Positions 1 through 58,630 of a stretch of DNA of 64,000 nt are shown here, piece by piece. Position numbers and translations under genes: made by a program. Location of the stretch: the NCBI RefSeq assembly GCF_038025025.1, contig NW_027117344.1, positions 434,001 through 498,000 of the forward strand, in the 5' to 3' direction. Numbering within the stretch: the first letter of the stretch is position 1; every line of letters starts with the position of its first letter. The stretch comes from Phyllosticta citribraziliensis. Its lineage: Eukaryota. The notes under the pieces were generated by a model, which did not search any database, was not told the DNA's origin, and was given only the letters and a program-made list of their open reading frames with translations.

Positions 1-1080
1 TTGACGCCTCACGAAGACTTGATGAATATTGACCATTACGGGCAACGTGCGCCGTCTTTTTTTGAAAGACCTTGGACGCTTTTACACAATCGCATCACAC
101 GAGGGATGAAATTTTGAGGCGGCTGCTTTATGCGGCCTCGCCTGATTGAATTGATGGGCTTGTACTTATTGCGACATTGGTGTTTCTCGGATCGAGCGCT
201 TTTCAGCATTTGAGCGAGTCCTCAGTTGTTTTCTTTCAAACAGCAAAGCGCATGGATTTTTTTGCTTCCCTTTTTTTGCCCCGTCCTGTTTTTGCAGCAT
301 TATCTGGCCATGCGGAGTCGGGAAAGGCCGGCCGGTCAGAGCCTCATCCAATGTATTATCTTAGGTTTTCCTTTTTCTTCTCTTCCCCTTTCCAAAAAAG
401 CATGGGCATGCGTTGGTTGCTGTTCCCTTTCCCATAACAAGTTCACACACTCTCAACATGTCCATCTTGATCCTCCCACAACCAAATTTCCGCGGGCTTA
501 TTTCTGATGTCTGGCGGATGGGTTTGGAGAGCGAGTCGGCAGGCAGGATACGGTCTGTACCGGACGGACAGACTCCCTTGCACGATATAAACATCCAGGC
601 GACCACCGATCCATCCATCGCATCCCACCATGATCGCGTCCCATCCCTCCTGCGTATCCTGCGACGTCGATTGCCGAGATCTGCTGTCAGTATGGATGGT
701 GGGTGGGCCGCCTCCTCCGCTCCATGATCAAACAAGAGCAACGGATACGGCCAGCAGCTGGGCTGGCTCATGTCGTCTCTGCAAGGGTTGGAATTGGGTT
801 TGACATGGGACGTCTCAGCCTCTCACCTCTCTCCCACGCACCCCCCGGTCAAGCTTCCTGGTCCTGGGCCCGGTTGCGTTCGGTTCGGTTGGGGCTGCGC
901 CTTGGCCCCGGCACCCCCCGGTCTCTGCGGCTGGACGTATCTTTGTTTTTCTTTTCTTTTCCTTTCTCGTGGCTGCTTGCCTGCCTGCCTTGTTCGCGCA
1001 AGCGCGCCTTTTTCTCTCCGGATCGTTCGTGCAGAGTCACGTACAGGGGCTGGTTGGAAGAAGCGCAGGCAGGCATCGCC

Positions 1081-35142: not shown

Positions 35143-36345
35143 ATGTCGTCGTCCTCGCAGGTCGCCGAGTCATGGATCTCGTCCTTTTGCAACCTCCTCG
35201 GCCACGAGTACTTCGCCGAGGTATCGGAGGACTTTATCGAGGATGACTTCAACCTCACCGGCCTCCAGTCCCAGGTACCCATGTACAAGGAGGCCCTCGA
35301 AATGATTCTCGACGTGGAGCCCGAAGAGGATGACGAAGACGAAGAAGAGGAAGATGAAGACGAGGACGAGGACGAGATACTCGGCGACGAGAGGCCGCCT
35401 GGATACCGACGCGCCGACCGGCGCCATCAGCGCATGGCCAGCGACCTCAGCGTGATAGAAAGCTCGGCAGAACTCCTCTACGGCCTCATCCACCAACGAT
35501 ACATTACGTCGCGACCGGGCATGCAGCAAATGGCCGAGAAATACGAGCTGCAACACTTTGGCGTGTGCCCACGCGTACACTGCAACAGCGCCAAAGTCCT
35601 GCCCGTCGGCTGCAGTGACACGCCCGGCCAAGAGACGGTCAAACTCTTCTGCCCTTCCTGCCTCGACGTCTACACGCCGCCCAACTCGCGCTTCCAAACC
35701 GTCGACGGCGCCTTCTTCGGCACCACCTTTGGCTGCCTGTTCTTCATGACTTTCCCCGAACTCGACATTGGCACCCCCCGCAGTCTCACTAATCCTTCCG
35801 CCGCCGCCGCCGCCGCCACTGCCGCTGCTGCTGCACGCGGCGAAGATCATTCCATTCAGGACTCATCGAGCCAGACTTCGACGTCCAAGTCCCGCGCCTC
35901 CAGTTCATCCACCACGACACCCTCGCTGCCGCCGCAGCCGGCCCTCATCAATGGCGTCACGCCCGCCAACTTGGCGCCTGGCCTCGGCGACGGCAACATC
36001 TACGAACCGCGCATCTACGGCTTCCGCGTCAACGAGCGCAGCCGCACCGGACCGCGCATGAGGTGGCTGCGGTCGCGGCCAGCCGACGTCAACGAGCTGG
36101 ACGAGGCGCGCATATTCCACGAGCAACGACGGATAGCAGACGAGGCAGAAGGACAAGAAGAGGAGGGCGAGGACAGCACCATGATGGACGCGGGAATGGA
36201 GGGGGGCGGCGCCGCGGTGGGCGTGCCGATTCCGCGCAAGAAGGCCGTCGCGAGGAGGAGACGGGCTGCAGCAGCGAACGGGACCGCCGTCGTTGGCGGA
36301 AGAGGCTCTCCGATGAACACGAACGGTGTGGGCGAGGGCGGCTGA
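35143..36345 (+). CDS. CKB1: Casein kinase II regulatory subunit beta (Ckb1 type), 400 aa
   Basis: SWISSFC..GHEYFAEVSEDFIEDDFNLTGL, extended acidic loop, AELLYGLIHQRYI, zinc ribbon CPRVHC...VKLFCPSCLDVY, DGAFFGTTF, YEPRIYGF. Confidence 0.95.
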   Translation: MSSSSQVAESWISSFCNLLGHEYFAEVSEDFIEDDFNLTGLQSQVPMYKEALEMILDVEPEEDDEDEEEEDEDEDEDEILGDERPPGYRRADRRHQRMASDLSVIESSAELLYGLIHQRYITSRPGMQQMAEKYELQHFGVCPRVHCNSAKVLPVGCSDTPGQETVKLFCPSCLDVYTPPNSRFQTVDGAFFGTTFGCLFFMTFPELDIGTPRSLTNPSAAAAAATAAAAARGEDHSIQDSSSQTSTSKSRASSSSTTTPSLPPQPALINGVTPANLAPGLGDGNIYEPRIYGFRVNERSRTGPRMRWLRSRPADVNELDEARIFHEQRRIADEAEGQEEEGEDSTMMDAGMEGGGAAVGVPIPRKKAVARRRRAAAANGTAVVGGRGSPMNTNGVGEGG

Positions 36346-37539
36346 TTGACTCGACGTTTCGGAATCGCAACTTGCCATTGGCTTTGAGGGGCGTTTTTTT
36401 CTCCTCCCTTTTATCTAGTAGAGATGGACATGGGCTGCCTAGTGGAGTAAGAAGAAGAAGCAGACCTCTCTCTCTCTCTCTCTCCCTCTCTTCTTTGCAG
36501 CCGATTATTGGAGCGAAGGCAGGCTTGTTGGGTGGGTGGGGTTGACAAATTTGCTCGGAAATGGGATTGCTGCCGCCCTTTTTTCTTCTACCTGTACCTT
36601 GGCAGCGGCTGGTTCTACGTAGAAGAAGCGTGGTCGGACCACACAGAGCAGGCGGGGAAAGGGAAGGGAGGGAGGGAGCGGGCTGGCTGGCATGTTGAGC
36701 AATTGAACTGAAAGGAAAGAGCACGGCGGAAAGAAATAGCAAAGGGACGGGAGAGGGCTTCACGCACGGGTCTACGGGCTATGAATCAGCAGATGGACGC
36801 GACGGACGGACCGATGGATGGATGGATGGTTGGTTGGTTGGACTACTATCCGATGATGACTTTTTTCTCTTCTCTTCCTCTTGAGCCTCTCGATTCTCGT
36901 TTTTTCCCCTGGCTCCTCTCTTGATCTGATCCGGTAATGTTGACTTGGCTTGACTTGACTTGACTGCAGTGGTTAGTTACCTCCAGGCCCCCGTCGTCTC
37001 TTCTCTCATCTCATGTCTCCCTGCTTTCCTTCATTCTCGTTGGCACACTGCTCTCTCTCCCTCCCTTCCTCCCTGGCATGTGCCCTCTCTGTCTCTCCAG
37101 CCCATCTCTCTCCACCGGCCAAGCAATGGATCGCCCAGAGAGGAAGAAAGAGTTTCGGCAATGTGCGACGGTGCTGTTTTGCAGCCGTTACTCTCGGAGA
37201 AGATGCTTGCTATGACTAATGTAGCCCACTCAGACTGTCCGTATTAGACGGTAGAGCAGAGATGATGATGGACGGCTGAGGTACTCTGAGCCACATCGAT
37301 AACGTGGAGAAAGAGAGGCGACGATAGAGAGTGCCTGAGGCAGCCCGTATCAGTGAAGAGGTCGACGAGGAAGAGGAGGATAGCAGATCAGAGAGCAAAG
37401 CAGCGTACCTAGAGAGCAGACAGTCCAGGCAGCCAGCCAGCCAGACGGTACAGTGCCCTCCCCCCACCTTACCTTATCCTCCCTTCGCACGCACGCCCGC
37501 ACCCATCCATATAAGCCAAAAACGCGACATCCAAATCAC

Positions 37540-37714
37540 GGATCATCCAGAGTGGCAGAGTGGTAGTAGTCGTTGATTAGGGCCTGCCGTGAGGCAGACT
37601 ACTCCGGGCGCCGGCACCTTACAGAAAGGGCCCCTGTAAGGTGCTCGGGTTCACGCCCGGCACTGTAATAGGCCGTTGTTCGACTCCCGGTTGCTGCGCT
37701 GGGTGGTCCATTTT
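37540..37714 (+). ncRNA. Putative RNA polymerase III-transcribed structured ncRNA, copy 1 (~175 nt, family unidentified)
   Basis: TATAA 37510-37514, A box TGGCAGAGTGG 37553-37563, B box GTTCGACTCC 37678-37687, T-runs 37711-37730. Terminal stem GGATCATCCAG/CTGGGTGGTCC, AGTAGTC/GACTACT helix, CTGCC-GTGA-GGCAG hairpin, and a long hairpin CCGGGCG..GCACCTTACAG/CTGTAAGGTGC..CGCCCGG. Ends are inferred. Confidence 0.7.
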
Positions 37715-38187
37715 CTTTTTGCTCTTTTTTCGCTTTGGGGTTTGTTTGTTTTGCTTCGCGGGCGGGTGTGGGTTGGTGGTGGGAGGGAAGGAGGGAAGGC
37801 GGATAGAAACGCCATGCTCGCCGCTCGGATATCTGGAGTCTGCAAGACCTGCAGGGAGGCGGCCACAGCATACATATAGCAGAAGCACCCGCCCGTACGT
37901 ACTCAGATCTTCTTTTTGCCCCAGAAGCAAGTCATTCACAGTGAGGAGCACCGGCACCCGGCGCAATGCGCCTCAGTCAGCAATGCCTACCTACCTCAAC
38001 ACTCCACCCAAACCGCCAGAAGAGAGACACCTTGTCGAGGCTCCACGCATCACACTCATATGACAGACGGTCTACTGAAGCGTGGCATTACCAACGAGTA
38101 AACAATTAAACGAAGAAAGCAAGTGCAGTCCACCCGGCACCAACCACCCACATATATAACCCACAACCCCCGTCTCGCACCCAAACA

Positions 38188-38378
38188 ACCAGTCAGAGTA
38201 GCCGAGTGGTCGCAGTCGAAACCTCCAAGGACCAGCCGTGAGGCAGACTACTTCAAGACGCGACATTACCGCATTCGTGCGCGTGGTGATGGCCTGGCAG
38301 CCATTGCTGTCACGTCCTTCCTTGAACTGTCGTAAGGTCGTTGTTCGACTCCCGCTTGGTGTGGTCGCTCTCTTTTTT
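38188..38378 (+). ncRNA. Putative RNA polymerase III-transcribed structured ncRNA, copy 2 (~190 nt, paralog of copy 1)
   Basis: TATATAA 38153-38159, A box TAGCCGAGTGG 38199-38209, B box GTTCGACTCC 38343-38352, T6 38373-38378. Identical to copy 1 over GCCGTGAGGCAGACTACT (38235-38252) and CGTTGTTCGACTCCCG (38339-38354). Closing stem AGAGTAGCC/GGTCGCTCT; variable arm closed by TTCAAG/CTTGAA. Confidence 0.7.
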
Positions 38379-39024
38379 GATTTTTTGGGAGTTGTTGTTT
38401 TGGGGGTGTGGGAGGAACGGGCAGGGGCGTGGACGGCTTGGTGAGAAGGAAGAGGGAGAAGGCGGATACGTCGTCTTCTGCTGCCAACCAACACCATATA
38501 TGCGTCCCGAGGCAGCCGCACCTAGCAAAAGCCACGTGCTTTGGCCTGAGAGGGAATCATTCAGTGACACAAACGACACTCTGCACAACGCGCCTCAGTC
38601 AGTTCAGGACGTCCGTAGCAATTGACCAAAACCACCACGAGACAAAAGCACCCACCTACCTTGGCTCTTCAGACGGGGACAACAATGCCCTACCCCAATC
38701 AGTTAGCATGCTAAAGAAGATGGAGCACGCCGTGCAGCCAACTTTGAAGCCCTGATGCACAGAATCAGCAAGCACGCTGGAAGCAGTGAATGGGACATTC
38801 AATCTAGTACTTGATAGCCAGCGAAATAACCAAGCGCTAGGTCTTGAAGCTCGACGACAAGGGGGAGATTAGGTCTGGGGAACATGGACGGAAAAATGAT
38901 GGAAAAAAAGACGGTAGAACGCTAATACTCTCTCGACTGCAGGTCGACTACCAATTTGCCTCTCACCTCTCTCTCTCCCCCTCCATCTCTCTTTCAGGCT
39001 CCCAAACATGTTCGTATCCAAGCC

Positions 39025-40553
39025 TCATATCTTAGCCATGGCCTTACTCCCAGCCGCAGCACCACCCCTCCCCTGCCCCCTGACATCCCTCTCCCACCCC
39101 TCACTCATAAGCCACCTCAACTGCGCACCCACCAGCTTCAAATCCGGGGGCCCAAGAGCGCGAAACGTGGGGCTATGCTGCTGGGTGCGCTTGATCTGCC
39201 AGTCGACAAACGGGCTGACGATGTTGCGCTTGGCCAGGCTGTCGCTCTTGTCGCCGCGCCGCTGTTGCTCCCACAGGCCCCACACCGGCAGCAGCTTGAG
39301 CGGCGGGAACCGCTTCGTGTCCTGCGGCAGCGCGCGCAGCCGCGCCAGCCACTCCTGGTGCGGCACGATGTCGAAGGAGAGCCCCAGCTTGTGGAGCATG
39401 GGCAGCAGGTCTTCGGTCCAGAGGATCGGGTGCGGGCCCAGCAGGTGGAAGACGCCGCCGGGGACAGGCTTGCTGTTGTCGGGTGGTGGAAGGCTGAGGT
39501 CGGCAATGGTGCCGGCGCACCCGTCGACCGGCAGCATGCGCGTGTGGATCTCTTGGTCCGGTAGTGCGCCCACCAGCAGTGCCGTCTGCCACATGCGCGG
39601 GATGTTCTCGCGCGGGTTCCAGATGCCCGTCACGGCGTCGCCGACGACCTGCCCGATGCGGATCGCGCGCGTCGTCAGCGACGGGTTGGCCGCCACCGCG
39701 CGCTCGCACATGAACTCGGCAACCAGCTTGCTCTGGCCGTAGCCCTGGTTCGGGTCCGTCGTCGCCAGCGTCGGGGGCATGACTTCGGGGACGGAGATGA
39801 TGCCCGTGGTCGGGTCAGGGGGTATGAACATGGGCATCAGGGCGACGGAGCCGTACGAGGAAAGAAAGTTGAACGAGGCTGGTGTGGGGGAGCGCGTTGA
39901 GAGGCAGAGGTTGATGAGGTTCTGCGTGGCGGCGAGGTTTTCGGCGTAGGCCGTCAGAGGCAGCATGAAGTTGATGATCCAGGCGCCGTGGATCACACAC
40001 GTTACGGTTGATTTAAGCTCTTCGAGGACCTCTGGGCTGAGACCAAGGTCGGGCTTGGCCATGTCGGACGCAAATGCCTGAATCTTGTCCAGTGCTTTGG
40101 GGGAAAACTTGTCGTAGACTGCGCCGACGCGTCGAGCTTCGAGCTCGTCGAGGACACGCTGCCGTGCGTGCTTTGGCGAGTTGGCCCGGACTAGGCAGAA
40201 TACCTTTTTGACGTTGTCCCGGATGGCTAGCTGCGCAGCGACGTGTGACCCAATCCCTCCGGTCACGCCTGTGACGAGCTTCAAACGATTAGACAGTGGG
40301 TGGGCTGCGACGGACATGACAACTTACCACGTATTCGCCAGTGTAGGTCCGAGGTTGCGGGACATGTTTACCAAAAGAAGAGTACTTGTCAATGAGCTCT
40401 TGCATCTGTTTGACGTGGGGCATGTTTGCGGCCATGTTCTCCACATCCATGGGTGGGACGAGGTTGTTCTCTGTTGATTTGATTAGCATGGCTAGCTTGA
40501 AGACCCTGAGTGAGCACCATACCATCACGGGGAGCGTTCTTATTGTCAGGCAT
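39025..40553 (-). CDS. Stand-alone thioester reductase (NRPS-like/CAR R domain, extended SDR, NAD_binding_4), 3 exons, ~475 aa
   Basis: Proposed exons 40553-40523, 40470-40328, 40278-39025 (introns GTATGG..GCTAAT..CAG and GTAAGT..CTAAT..AAG). Motifs LVTGVTGGIG, VFCLVRA, IHGAWIINF, GYGQSKLVAE (YxxxK) and RIGQVVGD..TGIWN. The first exon is the least certain. Confidence 0.82.
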
Positions 40554-51606: not shown

Positions 51607-52748
51607 GCTGCAAACGCCAAACGCTCTCCCGCAGCGGACGGATGGCCGCCTCCACAGCACACCACACTGCGCGCCTGGCCTGGCCGCCTCTCTGTATGTA
51701 CGTGTAGGCAAACCAAGCCCTCCCTTGCTTCTCCCCCAGTACACACGGCAGTGGAGTCCCCACACGACGCATGCAAAGCTGGCTATGTACATGTCATGTA
51801 TGTACCGATGTAGGTACACGATGGGTGCCTTGCTTTAGCTGCCGGCGCTAAGGTACACGAAGCAATGAACCTGCGCCCGTTCGCAGTCTTCCACCTATCC
51901 AGGCCATGGTATGCCGTTTTCCATCTCTCACATCTCTCTCAAATCTCTCTACGCACCTCCATCCCGGCCCGCTCTCCACCACCACCTACGCCATCACTCC
52001 AACGTAGGTTCGCACACCCGCCTTCCGCCCGGGCCGCCCTACCACTCCTCGCTGTTCGCTAGGCCGCTGAGCAAGGATACCCGTTGTCGCCGCGCGCGGT
52101 TCGTTGCGGCATCCCGTCCGTCCGGCCGGCCGGCCGTCCCGAACGAACGAACGAACGAACGACCGTTCGTTTGTGCGTGCGGCGTGCAGCAGTTCGGCTG
52201 CCTGACTGACGGATAGCTGCGGCCGCGAGGGACGGGGATGGCGGTGGCGGTGCTGGCGGGATGGTGGTGTAAAGATGGAGAAGTAAGTAGAGAAAGGCAA
52301 GAAAGAAGACAAGAGAAAGAGAGAGGTTGCAATATCATCAATTTGCAATGTACATACGCCATCCGCAAATCTGCAGCAGGAGAGCGTAGTGTCTAAACGT
52401 ACACAAGCCCAAAAAAAGACAACAAAGCAAGGCACACTCACCACCCACACCACACGACATTCCTCGCCTCCCTCCCCTTAGATGCCTCCCTTCCCTTCCC
52501 TTCCTCTCGGCAGCTGCCGAAGCGAAATGAAACGGACGCGCGACTTAAGCGCGTGGCGCAGCGAGAGGCGTTCGTACATGTGTGTGATGTGGCGGATGCA
52601 CGCACGCACGCACGCACGCTCGGCAAGGGCGGAAGAACGGGAGTTTGGCGGGTAAGGTGGATGCCTATGTGCGGTAGATTTTGTGATGGGATGGATGGCG
52701 GCGGCAGCAGGGGTGCGTCCGTCCGTCCGTCCACTGTCTGTCTATGAC

Positions 52749-52773
52749 GAGATGAGATGAGATGAGATGAGAT
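52749..52773. repeat. (GAGAT)5 microsatellite
   Basis: Read directly from the sequence. Confidence 0.85.
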
Positions 52774-53796
52774 GGGGGCGGGCGGTAGACGGGCGGGCGG
52801 TAGGCGCCAAGGTGAAGTCGTAGGGAGGTCGTGAGGTCGCACAGAGAGCGAGAGAGGGAGCGTACCACATGAACACGCACCTACCTTAGGTAGCAGACAT
52901 GCAGCAGAGCAGCAGCAACATCATCACAGGCAGAGCAAAGGGCAGTTGGTTGAGTGGGGGTCCGCGCGAGCAGACAAGAGATTACGAGCTGTTCTGAGAT
53001 TCTAAACGGGCAGGGCAAAAGCAATAGCAAAAGCAGACAGCAAAGAAAGCGACCAAGGAAAAGGCAAGCAACTTCAGTTTCCCCCCTGCCCCAGCCACCC
53101 ACGCCCCCAAACGTACGGACGGACTAAACAACACGCAGAAAAAGCAAAGCAAAGCAGAAATGTAGCGAATGGCAGCAAGCAGGCAAGCAAGCAGGCAACT
53201 TTTTGTTTTCCCCCCAGCCCAGCCCCCCTCATCCAATTTCCCAGCGCAAGTGTGTCTCTGTGCGTGATGGTGGTGGTGTATCGATCAAGCAAGCGTGTGC
53301 TGGAACCAATGTCTGACCCGAGTAAGAGTGAGAAAGGGGGTGGTGGGCGGCAGATTCTCGTCGGTCACCGCTGAAACACAAAACAAAGAGAGAAGTAGCA
53401 GCAGCAACAACAGCAGCAGCGCCTTCAGAATGCCGCACCCGTGTCTGTCGTGTGTAAGAGTGGGAATGGAGCCACCCAATGCAGAAAAGAAAACCGAAAA
53501 GGCAGCAGCGCAAAAAAGGAGTCGAGTGTTGTACAGACAACGAGAATGGGAGAAAAAGGGAACTCATACAATCTACTAGCATTACAATCGAGGTGGAAAA
53601 CGGGAAAAGTGGTATCTTTCGCAGAAATCGACCAAGAGCAAAAGAAGAAGAAGAAAAGAAGGGAAAGCCGGGTATAATCTGGCCATGATTGCAAAGCAAA
53701 GAAAGGAAAAATCTCTCAAGTCTTCTCCAGGGGTTTGATGAGTCGTTCATGTGTGAGTCATGGCTCGTCGTCGTTCGTCGTCCTGTTCGCCACCAT

Positions 53797-56363: not shown

Positions 56364-58630
56364 ATGTCGTACCACGCCTGCCACAACACCAAAGCGCCCT
56401 CCCGCTGCACTCCTCGAGGGTCGGTCACGCTTCCGTTTGACAGACGCAAAAGCAATGCTCCGCGAGCCATGCCCTCGCCCTGCAGACGGACGCGCTTCGC
56501 CGCACCTCTGAAATGCGACATCCGTGTTACCACCTACAGTTTCATGCCACCAAAACGGGCTCGACTTCTCCAAGCAAGCTTTGCTGCTTTTGTCAACCCT
56601 CCTTCCTTTTCCTCTCGTCCCATTTGTTTGCCTGGACAATTCTCCGGCCGTGCGACCAGCCTCCCATCTCATGCCGACCGAAGCGTCCGAGACGCTCCCA
56701 AAACACTTTACCTTGGCTTCCTCATGCACTCGACTTTGTGAAACCCGCAAACATGAAAAACATGGCGGCCGGTGCGGGGCCAGCGGGAGGCTTTGACCAG
56801 ACGGACCACAGCTGATTGCTGTCGTGTCCAATGATGCGCATACTTTGCAAACTGTACATTTGCAGATGCATGGGCGAAAAGGTTGGCTAGCTGTGGGCGC
56901 GTCCCAGCCGCCCGACTAGTCCTCGCGTTGGACAAGAGCTGGGAAACGAGTGGACCAAAAGAGAGCAGTAAACAACCAGAAATCCGGATCATGAAAGGAC
57001 ATCCCAGTTTCTCCTCTGACGTATGCCATTGCAACCCTGTTGGCAGGTTGAGGCTCAAAAAACGCCTTCCGCGACTCCAGGGATCGTTGGCATCGTGAAA
57101 ACGCGGCTATCCCAGCTGGCGTCAGCCACATGGATCCCGACTTCGTCAGTGGCTCAGGCAACGACGACGGAGAATAAAAGACACGCGATCCTGGACAGAC
57201 GACGACCACCCACTGCGCCACTTCCGCCGTTGGTTGTTTTGCTCTCGATCAGCCACACAAAAGAGTCATCATTGCAGACATCCTACGTGTCTGCTCAATC
57301 GTGCCCAACGCCAAGCGCATCGCAGGATGAGCAACATCAGCACTGAGCAGCTAGCCTTGAAGGTCGTCAATTAGCTCGGCCGGCACTTCGATCAGGTGCT
57401 GGAGTCGCAACTCAATCAATCACAAAGCGAGTGTTGCTAACTTGGCTAGTGTGCCCGCTAACAATTCCCTATGACTGGGCAACTGCTCTGCAGCCTTATG
57501 ATGCAGTATGTTTACGCTTGACTGCAGATCTTTTTGGGCGTTTCTGCATCGAGTCGCTACGAGAAATGACGCACGCCGTCAGGTTGGCCTGCCCAAGATG
57601 ATTCAGTGCCGATATTCGACATGCTGCACTTTGCAATTTGCGATGCACTTGAAGACGGCACGAGAAGGCCATCAGCGTAAAGTCAACATGTGCACCAACC
57701 TTGTATTCGAACTGCATCTCCTTGATCTTGGATCAAGAATATACCATTTTTCTTCGAAGCCGCCCATTCGTAACAAATCTCACGTCAGTCCAGACCGCGA
57801 CGGACTGGAATCGCGCCCGCCATCCACGCGTCTCCAACGAACCCAACCCATCCTCCTCCACCAAGGCCCGTCATCTAACTTCGAATCGAGCTCGCTCGAT
57901 TCCATGTGCTCCAAAATTACCTCACAGGACGGCGCCAAAAGCATCCACCTACCTCATTCCGTCGCCAGCCCAGCGCACCACGCGACCCTTAAACGCTCTC
58001 CACGAGCCGAATCGGGCAGCGAGTCGATGCAAATCTCACGGTCCAAACCGCCACCCGCGTCTTCTCCCACGCGGCCCAACAGGGCTACATTGCGCCTCGC
58101 CCATTAGCCACCCGCTGTTTCGGTACCGGCCCGTCCCACGTCGTCGTCTCGTCTTGACCCTTTTTCCATCTAATCCGACAGAGAAGCGCAAGAGCCACGA
58201 GGCTGTTTGGCGCCGCCCCGGCCGCGCATTGCGCAAGCCAAAGTCTTGGGAGTCGACGACGACGAACTCGGCCGGGGCACCACTGCGGGATGGATGGGCG
58301 GCCCCACTGTGTCCCGTTGGATGTTGATATAGAGACGGATGCCGCCGTTTGTGGTTCGAGATGTACAACACTTGATCAGAAACATTTATACACACCCTTG
58401 ACCAACCAAGCAAATTGCATCGACTTGATTACTCTTGAAAGAGCAAGGGACATCTGCCACGAGCTATCAGGACAGAGTATTGGGTGAACTAGTACAAGGT
58501 ATGTGCTTTGACTCTGATTATTCTCTCACCTCCCTGCCCCCTTTCCCTCCCAACACACTGCTAACTCTGCCATCCAGCTACCTCACCAACCACCCACACC
58601 ACCAACAAACTCCCAAAACAACCCACAAAA

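Follow-up and report, generated by a model that had tools for sequence, protein, structure and literature searches.

We analysed a 64,000-nucleotide (nt) stretch of DNA (the window) from Phyllosticta citribraziliensis, which covers positions 434,001 to 498,000 of contig NW_027117344.1 (assembly GCF_038025025.1); coordinates below are those of the window. In a 2.7-kb gap with the casein kinase II beta gene (CKB1) on one side and a reductase gene on the other, the window holds two similar units. We put the chances at about even that units 1 and 2 are paralogous genes of an undescribed family of small RNAs, derived from transfer RNA (tRNA) and of the panhandle type that RNA polymerase III (Pol III) makes, with unit 1 intact and unit 2 partly eroded. 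We favour a real family of RNA genes that are read by Pol III because of the signals in each unit, the ends of the unit 1 terminal helix (30 nt past a TATA-like box and at a T run), the strand-specific fold, the compensatory base pairs, the rod of a third copy in a related organism, and the conservation of unit 1.

Two units with the same order of signals

Both units have an A box and a B box on the same strand, followed by a run of at least four Ts, which is the arrangement that defines a type-2 Pol III gene. (We take the A-box consensus to be TRGCNNAGTGG.) The signals of each unit are listed below.

37540-37720, plus strand: unit 1, predicted RNA (about 175-181 nt) that spans the 5' strand of helix P1 through the first T4 and T5 runs
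37510-37515, plus strand: TATA-like box of unit 1 (TATAAG), 30 nt ahead of the first base of the terminal helix
37553-37563, plus strand: A box of unit 1, TGGCAGAGTGG, exact to the consensus (A-box region, 37552-37563)
37586-37603, plus strand: invariant 18-mer of unit 1, a GCC-GUGA-GGC hairpin and then AGACUACU, exact in both units
37662-37666, plus strand: ACTGT of unit 1
37674-37689, plus strand: invariant 16-mer of unit 1, including the B box TGTTCGACTCC (37677-37687), which matches the consensus at 10 of 11 positions
37711-37730, plus strand: cluster of T4, T5 and T6 runs of unit 1, beginning 1 nt past P1
38180-38378, plus strand: unit 2, predicted RNA of about 193-199 nt, with a core of the unit 1 type and a weak terminal rod
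38153-38159, plus strand: TATA-like box of unit 2 (TATATAA)
38199-38209, plus strand: A box of unit 2, TAGCCGAGTGG, exact to the consensus
38235-38252, plus strand: unit 2 copy of the invariant 18-mer, exact in both units
38326-38330, plus strand: ACTGT of unit 2
38339-38354, plus strand: invariant 16-mer of unit 2, including the B box (10 of 11 positions)
38373-38386, plus strand: T6 run, GA and a second T6 run of unit 2

An earlier, sequence-only reading of this DNA had reported a TATA box, an A box, the 18-mer, ACTGT, the 16-mer with its B box and T runs in each unit, and all of these are present where it placed them. It had also estimated the spacing from A box to B box as about 115 and 134 nt. 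Measured from the end of the A box to the start of the B box, the spacing is 113 nt (unit 1) and 132 nt (unit 2), in line with that estimate; from start to start, it is 124 and 143 nt.

At up to 3 mismatches, the 18-mer matches the window twice, versus 0.10 matches expected, and 0 of 100 shuffles reach two matches. The 16-mer also has two matches in the window (0.70 expected; 12 of 100 shuffles reach two). What is non-random is the ordered combination of signals, which occurs twice, and not the single boxes. (A third match to the A-box consensus, at 57210-57220 on the minus strand, has neither a B box nor a T run at the proper place.)

A shared fold in which the promoter boxes pair

We folded each unit separately, by minimum free energy (MFE) and by partition function, and took pair probabilities (p) from both ensembles. 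Both units have one common set of helices, which is made up of a terminal rod and a three-way junction with a GUGA hairpin and a variable arm. The modelled RNA is a rod that carries the three-way junction at its tip, with the promoter boxes on opposite strands of the rod. The helices are as follows, those of unit 2 being taken from its fold and pair probabilities.

37540-37550 with 37699-37709, plus strand: P1 of unit 1, GGAUCAUCCAG paired with CUGGGUGGUCC, 11 base pairs (bp) including two U-G pairs
37552-37558 with 37691-37697, plus strand: P2 of unit 1, GUGGCAG paired with UUGCUGC (p for the A-box region, 0.49-1.00)
37561-37563 with 37687-37689, plus strand: UGG paired with CCG in unit 1 (p for the A-box region, 0.49-1.00)
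37568-37572 with 37681-37685, plus strand: P3 of unit 1, AGUCG paired with CGACU (p 0.93-0.99), its 3' strand lying within the B box
37581-37584 with 37671-37674, plus strand: P4 of unit 1, GGCC paired with GGCC (p 0.76-0.99); GACC with GGUC in unit 2
37604-37660, plus strand: variable arm of unit 1, with a 7-bp closing helix and an 11-bp apical stem (37614-37624 with 37634-37644)
38355-38360, plus strand: CUUGGU of unit 2, the 3' strand paired with GCCGAG of the A box
38352-38354, plus strand: CCG of unit 2, the 3' strand paired with UGG of the A box
38252-38326, plus strand: variable arm of unit 2, with a 6-bp closing helix and a branched interior (a UUCG-capped stem and a second hairpin)

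P2 joins the 5' half of the A box to the 6-8 nt directly after the B box, and P3 joins the tail of the A box (UGG / G / AGUCG) to CGACU / C / CCG of the B box. P5 is the GCC-GUGA-GGC hairpin, whose pairs have p of 0.97-0.98. Beyond P5 come (G)AC/GU(C) and then the copy-specific arm, whose closure falls exactly on the borders of the conserved blocks. All 23 of the 23 homologous core pairs (P2, P3, the first 4 pairs of P4, and P5) have p of at least 0.45 in both units. Two of the differences between the units are compensatory: A37557-U37692 in P2 of unit 1 corresponds to C38203-G38358 in unit 2, and G37582-C37673 in P4 corresponds to A38231-U38338. The two positions that differ within UGGUAGUAGUCG / UGGUCGCAGUCG fall on predicted bulges.

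The fold of unit 1 is far more stable than those of shuffled sequences (MFE of -87.1 kcal/mol with z = -4.67; none of 200 shuffles did as well), versus z = +0.37 for a neighbouring control stretch of 177 nt. Furthermore, the structure favours the plus strand in both units. The minus strand of unit 1 reaches -69.2 kcal/mol (z = -3.20), which is 18 kcal/mol weaker than the plus strand, and for unit 2 the values are -65.3 kcal/mol on the plus strand versus -58.5 kcal/mol on the minus strand (z = +0.11). The P1 duplex of unit 1 has an energy of -29.3 kcal/mol, compared to a mean of -15.7 kcal/mol for shuffles (0 of 2000 as good). This helix begins 30 nt past the TATA-like box and stops 1 nt before the T run.

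The closures of the variable arms in the sequence-only reading (CCGGGCG/CGCCCGG in unit 1 and UUCAAG/CUUGAA in unit 2), along with its 11-bp apical stem, are present in our folds. In contrast, its pairing of AGTC with the GACT of the 18-mer is in neither ensemble; instead, the partner of AGUCG is the CGACU within the B box (p of 0.93-1.00). Its pairing of the 5' and 3' ends is strong in unit 1 and is no better than chance in unit 2. Compared to unit 1, unit 2 is missing about 7 nt directly past its B box, at the place expected for the 3' strand of P2, so its A box pairs with the counterpart of the P1 strand. Unit 2 looks like a partly eroded copy, though its boxes, 18-mer, TATA and T6 run have been kept.

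A consensus fold of the two units (RNAalifold on a MAFFT alignment) was unusable because the unrelated arms were misaligned. The pairing of GAGUGGU with ACUACUY that it proposed has p of 0.00 in both ensembles.

Conservation in relatives and a third copy

Nine public runs, none of which is recorded as RNA, contain parts of this stretch; we used four of them (X1, X2, X7 and X9), all in the form of assembled contigs. We refer to the sources of X7 and X9, which come from separate studies, as organism B and organism C.

Organism B has a syntenic contig that spans 37326-37874. The body of unit 1 has 4 substitutions in 177 nt (at 37574, 37576, 37644 and 37712) as compared to 28 at the 311 flanking positions that could be listed, although these counts are of substitutions, and with 12 of the 46 indel rows listed, unit 1 may have indels as well. 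At 2.3% versus 9.0% substitution, the body of unit 1 is about four times better kept than its flanks (Fisher p = 0.004). In organism C, there are 3 substitutions in 157 nt of the body versus 5 in 46 nt upstream (p = 0.016), with at most 2 gap letters across 37494-37696, and organism C shares three of the four substitutions of organism B. The sole change in the variable arm, C37644U in both organisms, turns a G-C pair into a G-U pair and so keeps the pairing. The T37712C substitution in organism B disrupts the first T4 run and leaves the T5 run intact. The TATA-like box of unit 1 stays TATA-like in both organisms (G37515T gives TATAAT) while the adjacent positions 37505-37508 change.

Organism B also has a third, dispersed copy. 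It lies on a contig of 2013 nt. Only 38198-38354 of the window is matched, which reaches exactly from the A box to where the B box stops, and the match contains 13 substitutions and 7 gap letters. The indels that are listed all fall in predicted loops or linkers. On both sides, the flanks of this copy are unlike those in the window, and there is no shared 3' tail. We read the 30-letter loose ends of the match by eye, rather than by computation: the 8 nt past the B box pair perfectly with GUAGCCGA, and blocks of 5, 4 and 5 bp between the leader and the trailer give a P1 of about 14 bp. The third copy thus keeps both P2 and P1 with different letters, which implies that the rod covaries. Though its pairing was read by eye, this is the strongest evidence of covariation at hand. 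The sequence-only reading had described two diverged paralogs. The two diverged tandem copies in the window agree with this, and the dispersed copy in organism B adds a third.

As for matches elsewhere, a metagenome scan with the 18-mer gave one locus: a contig (L001, positions 401-418, minus strand) has an exact copy of the 18-mer but lacks every other block of the units, so we consider it a chance match. The prokaryote genome contigs and viral contigs that we scanned gave 0 matches. Among these collections, none of them a set of fungal genomes, no distant homologue was found.

An old tandem duplication

The tandem duplication to which the units belong is old, has a period of about 650-665 bp, and aligns at only 30-55% identity in its flanks. 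The two repeats keep 8 exact blocks of at least 9 nt, compared to a mean of 1.45 and a maximum of 7 across 300 shuffles. The 18-mer and the 16-mer are the two longest of these. From one repeat to the other, conserved blocks shift by 649, 665, 663 and 622 nt, which preserves no reading frame, and we rejected a coding explanation: the minus-strand open reading frames (ORFs) over the two units are alike merely through the likeness of the DNA.

Two of the exact blocks lie outside the units. The 11-mer GAAGGCGGATA is at 37795-37805 and 38458-38468, about 85-90 nt past each T run, and it is unchanged in organism B while neighbouring letters differ. The 13-mer GCGCCTCAGTCAG is at 37968-37980 and 38590-38602; in the second repeat, it forms the branch-site and 3' splice region of a minus-strand intron (see below).

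Comparison to known RNA families

ARAGORN identified 0 tRNA genes across the 64,000 nt, and at its default score it identified 0 in 37400-38500 when introns of up to 3000 nt were allowed. Loosened thresholds (-ps80 and -ps70) gave only inconsistent, spurious calls elsewhere in the region; allowing introns also gave a "tRNA-Met" with a 687-nt intron at 52124-52898 (minus strand), which is almost certainly spurious. Of the 5 positions of a would-be T stem around UUCGACU (CGUUG versus CCCGG or CCCGC), 2 can pair in unit 1 and 1 in unit 2, and the 3' strand of this stem pairs instead with the UGG of the A-box region. Neither unit has a D stem or a 7-nt anticodon loop.

We also compared the window to Rfam 15, a check that had been proposed along with the sequence-only reading. 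Across the whole window, 0 of 4227 families matched at the gathering score. Within 37400-38500, at E of 10 or less, there were 3 chance matches to unrelated families, with 14-17 bits versus thresholds of 50-60, and the models for tRNA, Vault, Y_RNA, SRP (signal recognition particle), RNase P/MRP, U6 and the Afu_* families gave no match. Both the ARAGORN and the Rfam results agree with that reading, which had held that the units are not tRNAs and had matched them to none of the U6, 5S, SRP, RNase P/MRP or snoRNA motifs.

The units probably descend from a tRNA gene. As in tRNA genes, there is an A box, a B box with T-loop sequence, a T run, and an acceptor-like helix of 7-8 bp between the 5' region and the segment just past the position of the B box and T arm. 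Unlike tRNAs, the units have no cloverleaf; the tail of the A box pairs with the B box, and there is an extra helix (P1) between leader and trailer.

To our knowledge, the Pol III transcripts of filamentous fungi are tRNAs, 5S, U6, SRP and RNase P RNAs, and a few precursors of microRNA-like RNAs (milRNAs). In the literature that we searched, on Pol III or tRNA-like non-coding RNAs in filamentous fungi and on fungal Y RNAs, an RNA of this kind is undescribed, and neither the 18-mer nor the 16-mer was found in print.

The vault, viral VA, EBER and nc886 RNAs have paired 5' and 3' ends, a variable central domain, and several paralogues per genome. On the architecture of the predicted fold, the units group with these panhandle Pol III RNAs. 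The 3' part of human vault RNA presumably resembles GUUGUUCGA..CCCG. Vault RNAs are small Pol III RNAs of 80-140 nt with internal A and B boxes (PMC7916137). The units share the internal boxes with vault RNAs but are longer, at 175-195 nt, and the Rfam Vault model is silent at E of 10 or less. Vault RNAs also associate with the vault particle (MVP, TEP1).

With Y RNAs, the units share a predicted stem made from the two ends, clustered copies, and a variable part. In contrast to Y RNAs, whose conserved lower stem has a bulge that binds Ro60, no Ro-binding helix was recognised in the units, and the Y_RNA model of Rfam is silent. Because the Rfam models for both are silent, the units probably belong to neither the vault nor the Y RNA family. 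As further background, vertebrate Y genes use type-3 promoters, and the bacterial YrlA carries a tRNA-like domain. A scan of 18 ORFs in the window gave no Ro60/TROVE gene. Y RNAs are Pol III products with a long stem formed from both ends, variable loops and a U-tail that La binds, and their paralogues are clustered; those of fungi "have not been identified yet" (PMC7281143).

Evidence against a new family, and alternative explanations

A number of results weigh against the interpretation of the units as Pol III genes of a new RNA family. The transcript, its 5' and 3' ends, and its use of Pol III are predictions from motifs. Neither consensus is above chance by itself: the A box has 3 matches in the window versus 1.12 expected, and the B box has 6 versus 4.53 expected. 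Most of the core pairs lie in invariant sequence, which makes them uninformative about pairing, and only two pairs covary between the copies in the window. For unit 2, the fold (-65.3 kcal/mol) has a z of just -1.06, with 28 of 200 shuffles as good, and the pairing of its ends (-10.7 kcal/mol) is matched by 1845 of 2000 shuffles. The closure of the variable arm is modest in both units, with 130 of 5000 shuffles as good in unit 1 (p = 0.026) and 287 of 5000 in unit 2 (p = 0.057). The 11-mer and the 13-mer are also kept and lie outside the units, so the conservation of blocks is not unique to the RNA. Organisms B and C, from which the evidence of conservation comes, are close relatives of the organism sampled here (A). 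The function that we propose below, a scaffold for a ribonucleoprotein (RNP), would be one assigned by analogy. Finally, a screen of intergenic regions in five fungi, including Neurospora crassa and Aspergillus fumigatus, reports none that is of Pol III type or tRNA-like in its available text (PMC8216456).

The silence of the five-fungi screen, as far as its available text goes, fits a narrow taxonomic distribution. More broadly, the available text of comparative screens for structured RNAs in fungi does not mention Pol III or tRNA-like motifs (PMC5640933, PMC8216456). The 144-nt "intergenic structure 2" of Pezizomycotina (PMC8216456) may overlap with the units or be identical to them.

The least improbable of the alternatives, though we still consider it unlikely, is that the units are relics of a tRNA-derived repeat, either like a short interspersed element (SINE) or a tRNA pseudogene, and that they are at most DNA for TFIIIC to bind, such as a boundary between convergent genes. 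TFIIIC recognises A and B boxes, the units have convergent transcription units on either side, unit 2 looks eroded, and organism B has a dispersed copy. Like tRNA-derived SINEs, the units have a tRNA-like promoter head and more than one copy, one of which is dispersed in organism B. In contrast to such SINEs, the boxes are about three times further apart than in a tRNA head, there is no shared 3' tail or poly(A), the flanks of a copy pair with each other, and 2-3 copies are known. (Counted as SINE-type copies, there are two in tandem in the window and no others there, and the one in organism B is alike only from the A box to the B box.) Because it lacks a shared tail, and because each copy has its own complementary flanks, the third copy argues against a SINE; its likeness to the window copies stops at the core. 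Furthermore, the 18-mer, which is no promoter element, is the longest of the invariant blocks, the pairing is strand-specific and uses G-U pairs, and the variable arm of unit 1 is kept in the orthologues. The two compensatory pairs and the covarying rod of the third copy also speak for an RNA rather than for a relic.

An explanation that we rank after the relic, and likewise think improbable, is that the units are structured parts of Pol II transcripts: unit 1 would lie in a long 3' untranslated region (UTR) of CKB1, and unit 2 would overlap the 3' end of a spliced minus-strand transcript, either as part of it or on the opposite strand. Contigs from run X1 cover 37300-37766 and 38128-38582 and leave 37767-38127 uncovered. 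The first contig, of 2890 nt, passes through unit 1 and covers at least 37300 to 37766; it continues for about 2.4 kb to the left, in the direction of CKB1, and it ends at 37766 straight into adapter letters. The second begins at 38128, likewise in adapter letters, and runs through unit 2. It leaves the window sequence at 38582 and resumes at about 38655, and the 72 nt that it skips (38583-38654) are a minus-strand GT..AG intron whose CTGAC branch site lies about 20 nt ahead of the AG. This skip implies that run X1 holds complementary DNA (cDNA), and that a spliced minus-strand transcript crosses unit 2 in antisense and ends near 38128. This transcript is probably the 3' part of the reductase transcription unit.

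The mean word depths of the two contigs are high, at 2619 (in a run of 95 million letters) and 842; these are means over whole contigs and cannot be assigned to the units. The contigs reveal neither the strand nor the ends of transcripts, and their own ends, which carry adapter letters, fall neither on the predicted Pol III start nor on the T runs. If both units were parts of Pol II transcripts, then one would be sense and the other antisense, yet the two are co-oriented. Also, the structure is specific to the plus strand, the third copy is in a different context, and the TATA, A box, B box and T run are placed as they would be in a Pol III unit.

We also doubt, and rank just behind the Pol II transcripts, that each unit is a Pol III precursor of small RNAs, in which the rod would provide the promoter and processing signals and the arm would be cut by Dicer or by nucleases of the RNase Z type to give Argonaute-bound small RNAs of about 19-25 nt, similar to the tRNA-linked miRNAs. 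The arm of unit 1 is a hairpin of about 21 bp (7+3+11 bp), and there is a precedent in Neurospora, a filamentous ascomycete, where the major milRNA precursors are short Pol III transcripts (about 170 nt) that end in T clusters and have TATA-like elements and stem-loops, and where one milRNA is cut by RNase Z from a precursor that contains a tRNA (PMC3547838). The units resemble these precursors in being short, in ending at a T cluster, and in having a TATA-like element and a stem-loop. They differ in that their promoter boxes lie inside a conserved fold and in that only unit 1 has a simple long hairpin; the arm of unit 2 is branched. Furthermore, the milR-1 precursor has no A or B box, and milR-4 adjoins true tRNAs (PMC3547838). 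For a simple carrier, such strong conservation of the 18-mer and the junction strands would not be required, and the orthologues keep the entire body of unit 1, beyond the arm.

Last, it is very improbable that the units are aberrant or intron-bearing tRNA genes that the detectors overlooked: the exact A box, the near-exact B box with T-loop sequence, and the acceptor-like helix of 7-8 bp past the T-arm position would fit, but ARAGORN was negative with introns of up to 3000 nt included and gave only inconsistent calls at loosened thresholds, the T stem pairs at just 2 of 5 positions, there is no D stem or 7-nt anticodon loop, and the tRNA model of Rfam finds nothing at E of 10 or less.

How the RNA might be made and used

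If the units are genes for a small RNA, then Pol III would read them via a type-2 internal promoter (the A and B boxes), with the TATA at about -30 aiding initiation, and transcription would stop at the T runs. The product would be an RNA of about 175-195 nt that does not form a cloverleaf, with its ends paired in P1 and its A box pairing both past and within the B box. It would retain the acceptor-like helix and the T-loop sequence of a tRNA and would have lost the T stem, the D stem, and the anticodon arm. Such an RNA could be stable, with a short U-tail that is probably bound by La. The invariant junction, the GNRA hairpin, and the ACUACU and ACUGU strands may form a platform for protein binding, and the variable arm might give each paralogue its specificity. 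We propose that the RNA acts as an RNP scaffold or a riboregulator, as do the panhandle RNAs of the vault, Y, VA and EBER type.

If this is correct, then an RNA of about 180 nt, conserved and structured and under its own type-2 promoter, would be new to the cell biology of fungi, and probably a new RNP would be as well. It would also be a case of a tRNA gene that was rebuilt into another fold, with its promoter boxes kept as the two strands of one helix, and it would provide a concrete candidate for the niche of vault and Y-type RNAs in fungi. A broader proposal, which we regard as a long shot, is that fungi have a class of abundant panhandle RNAs made by Pol III, with the units as its first members, in which the acceptor helix and T loop of a tRNA were kept and the rest became a protein-binding three-way junction and a paralogue-specific arm.

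Genomic setting

The sequence is from a filamentous fungus, and the window also encodes an AA9 lytic polysaccharide monooxygenase, a BOP1/Erb1-type protein, a DEAD-box helicase and a flavin monooxygenase. The genes on either side of the units are:

35143-36345, plus strand: CKB1, the casein kinase II beta gene (CK_II_beta profile, E = 1e-68)
39025-40317, minus strand: reductase gene (NAD_binding_4 profile, E = 1e-37)

More than 1 kb between the stop codon of CKB1 and unit 1 (36350-37500) has no convincing ORF and contains many simple CT/GA and CCAGCC repeats. This region might be transcribed as a long 3' UTR or as some other non-coding RNA. The ORF of CKB1 is open over 400 amino acids, with long acidic and Ala/Ser-rich stretches. 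The 182 positions of the CK_II_beta profile are spread across residues 10-295, which implies that the ORF contains insertions or unspliced in-frame introns.

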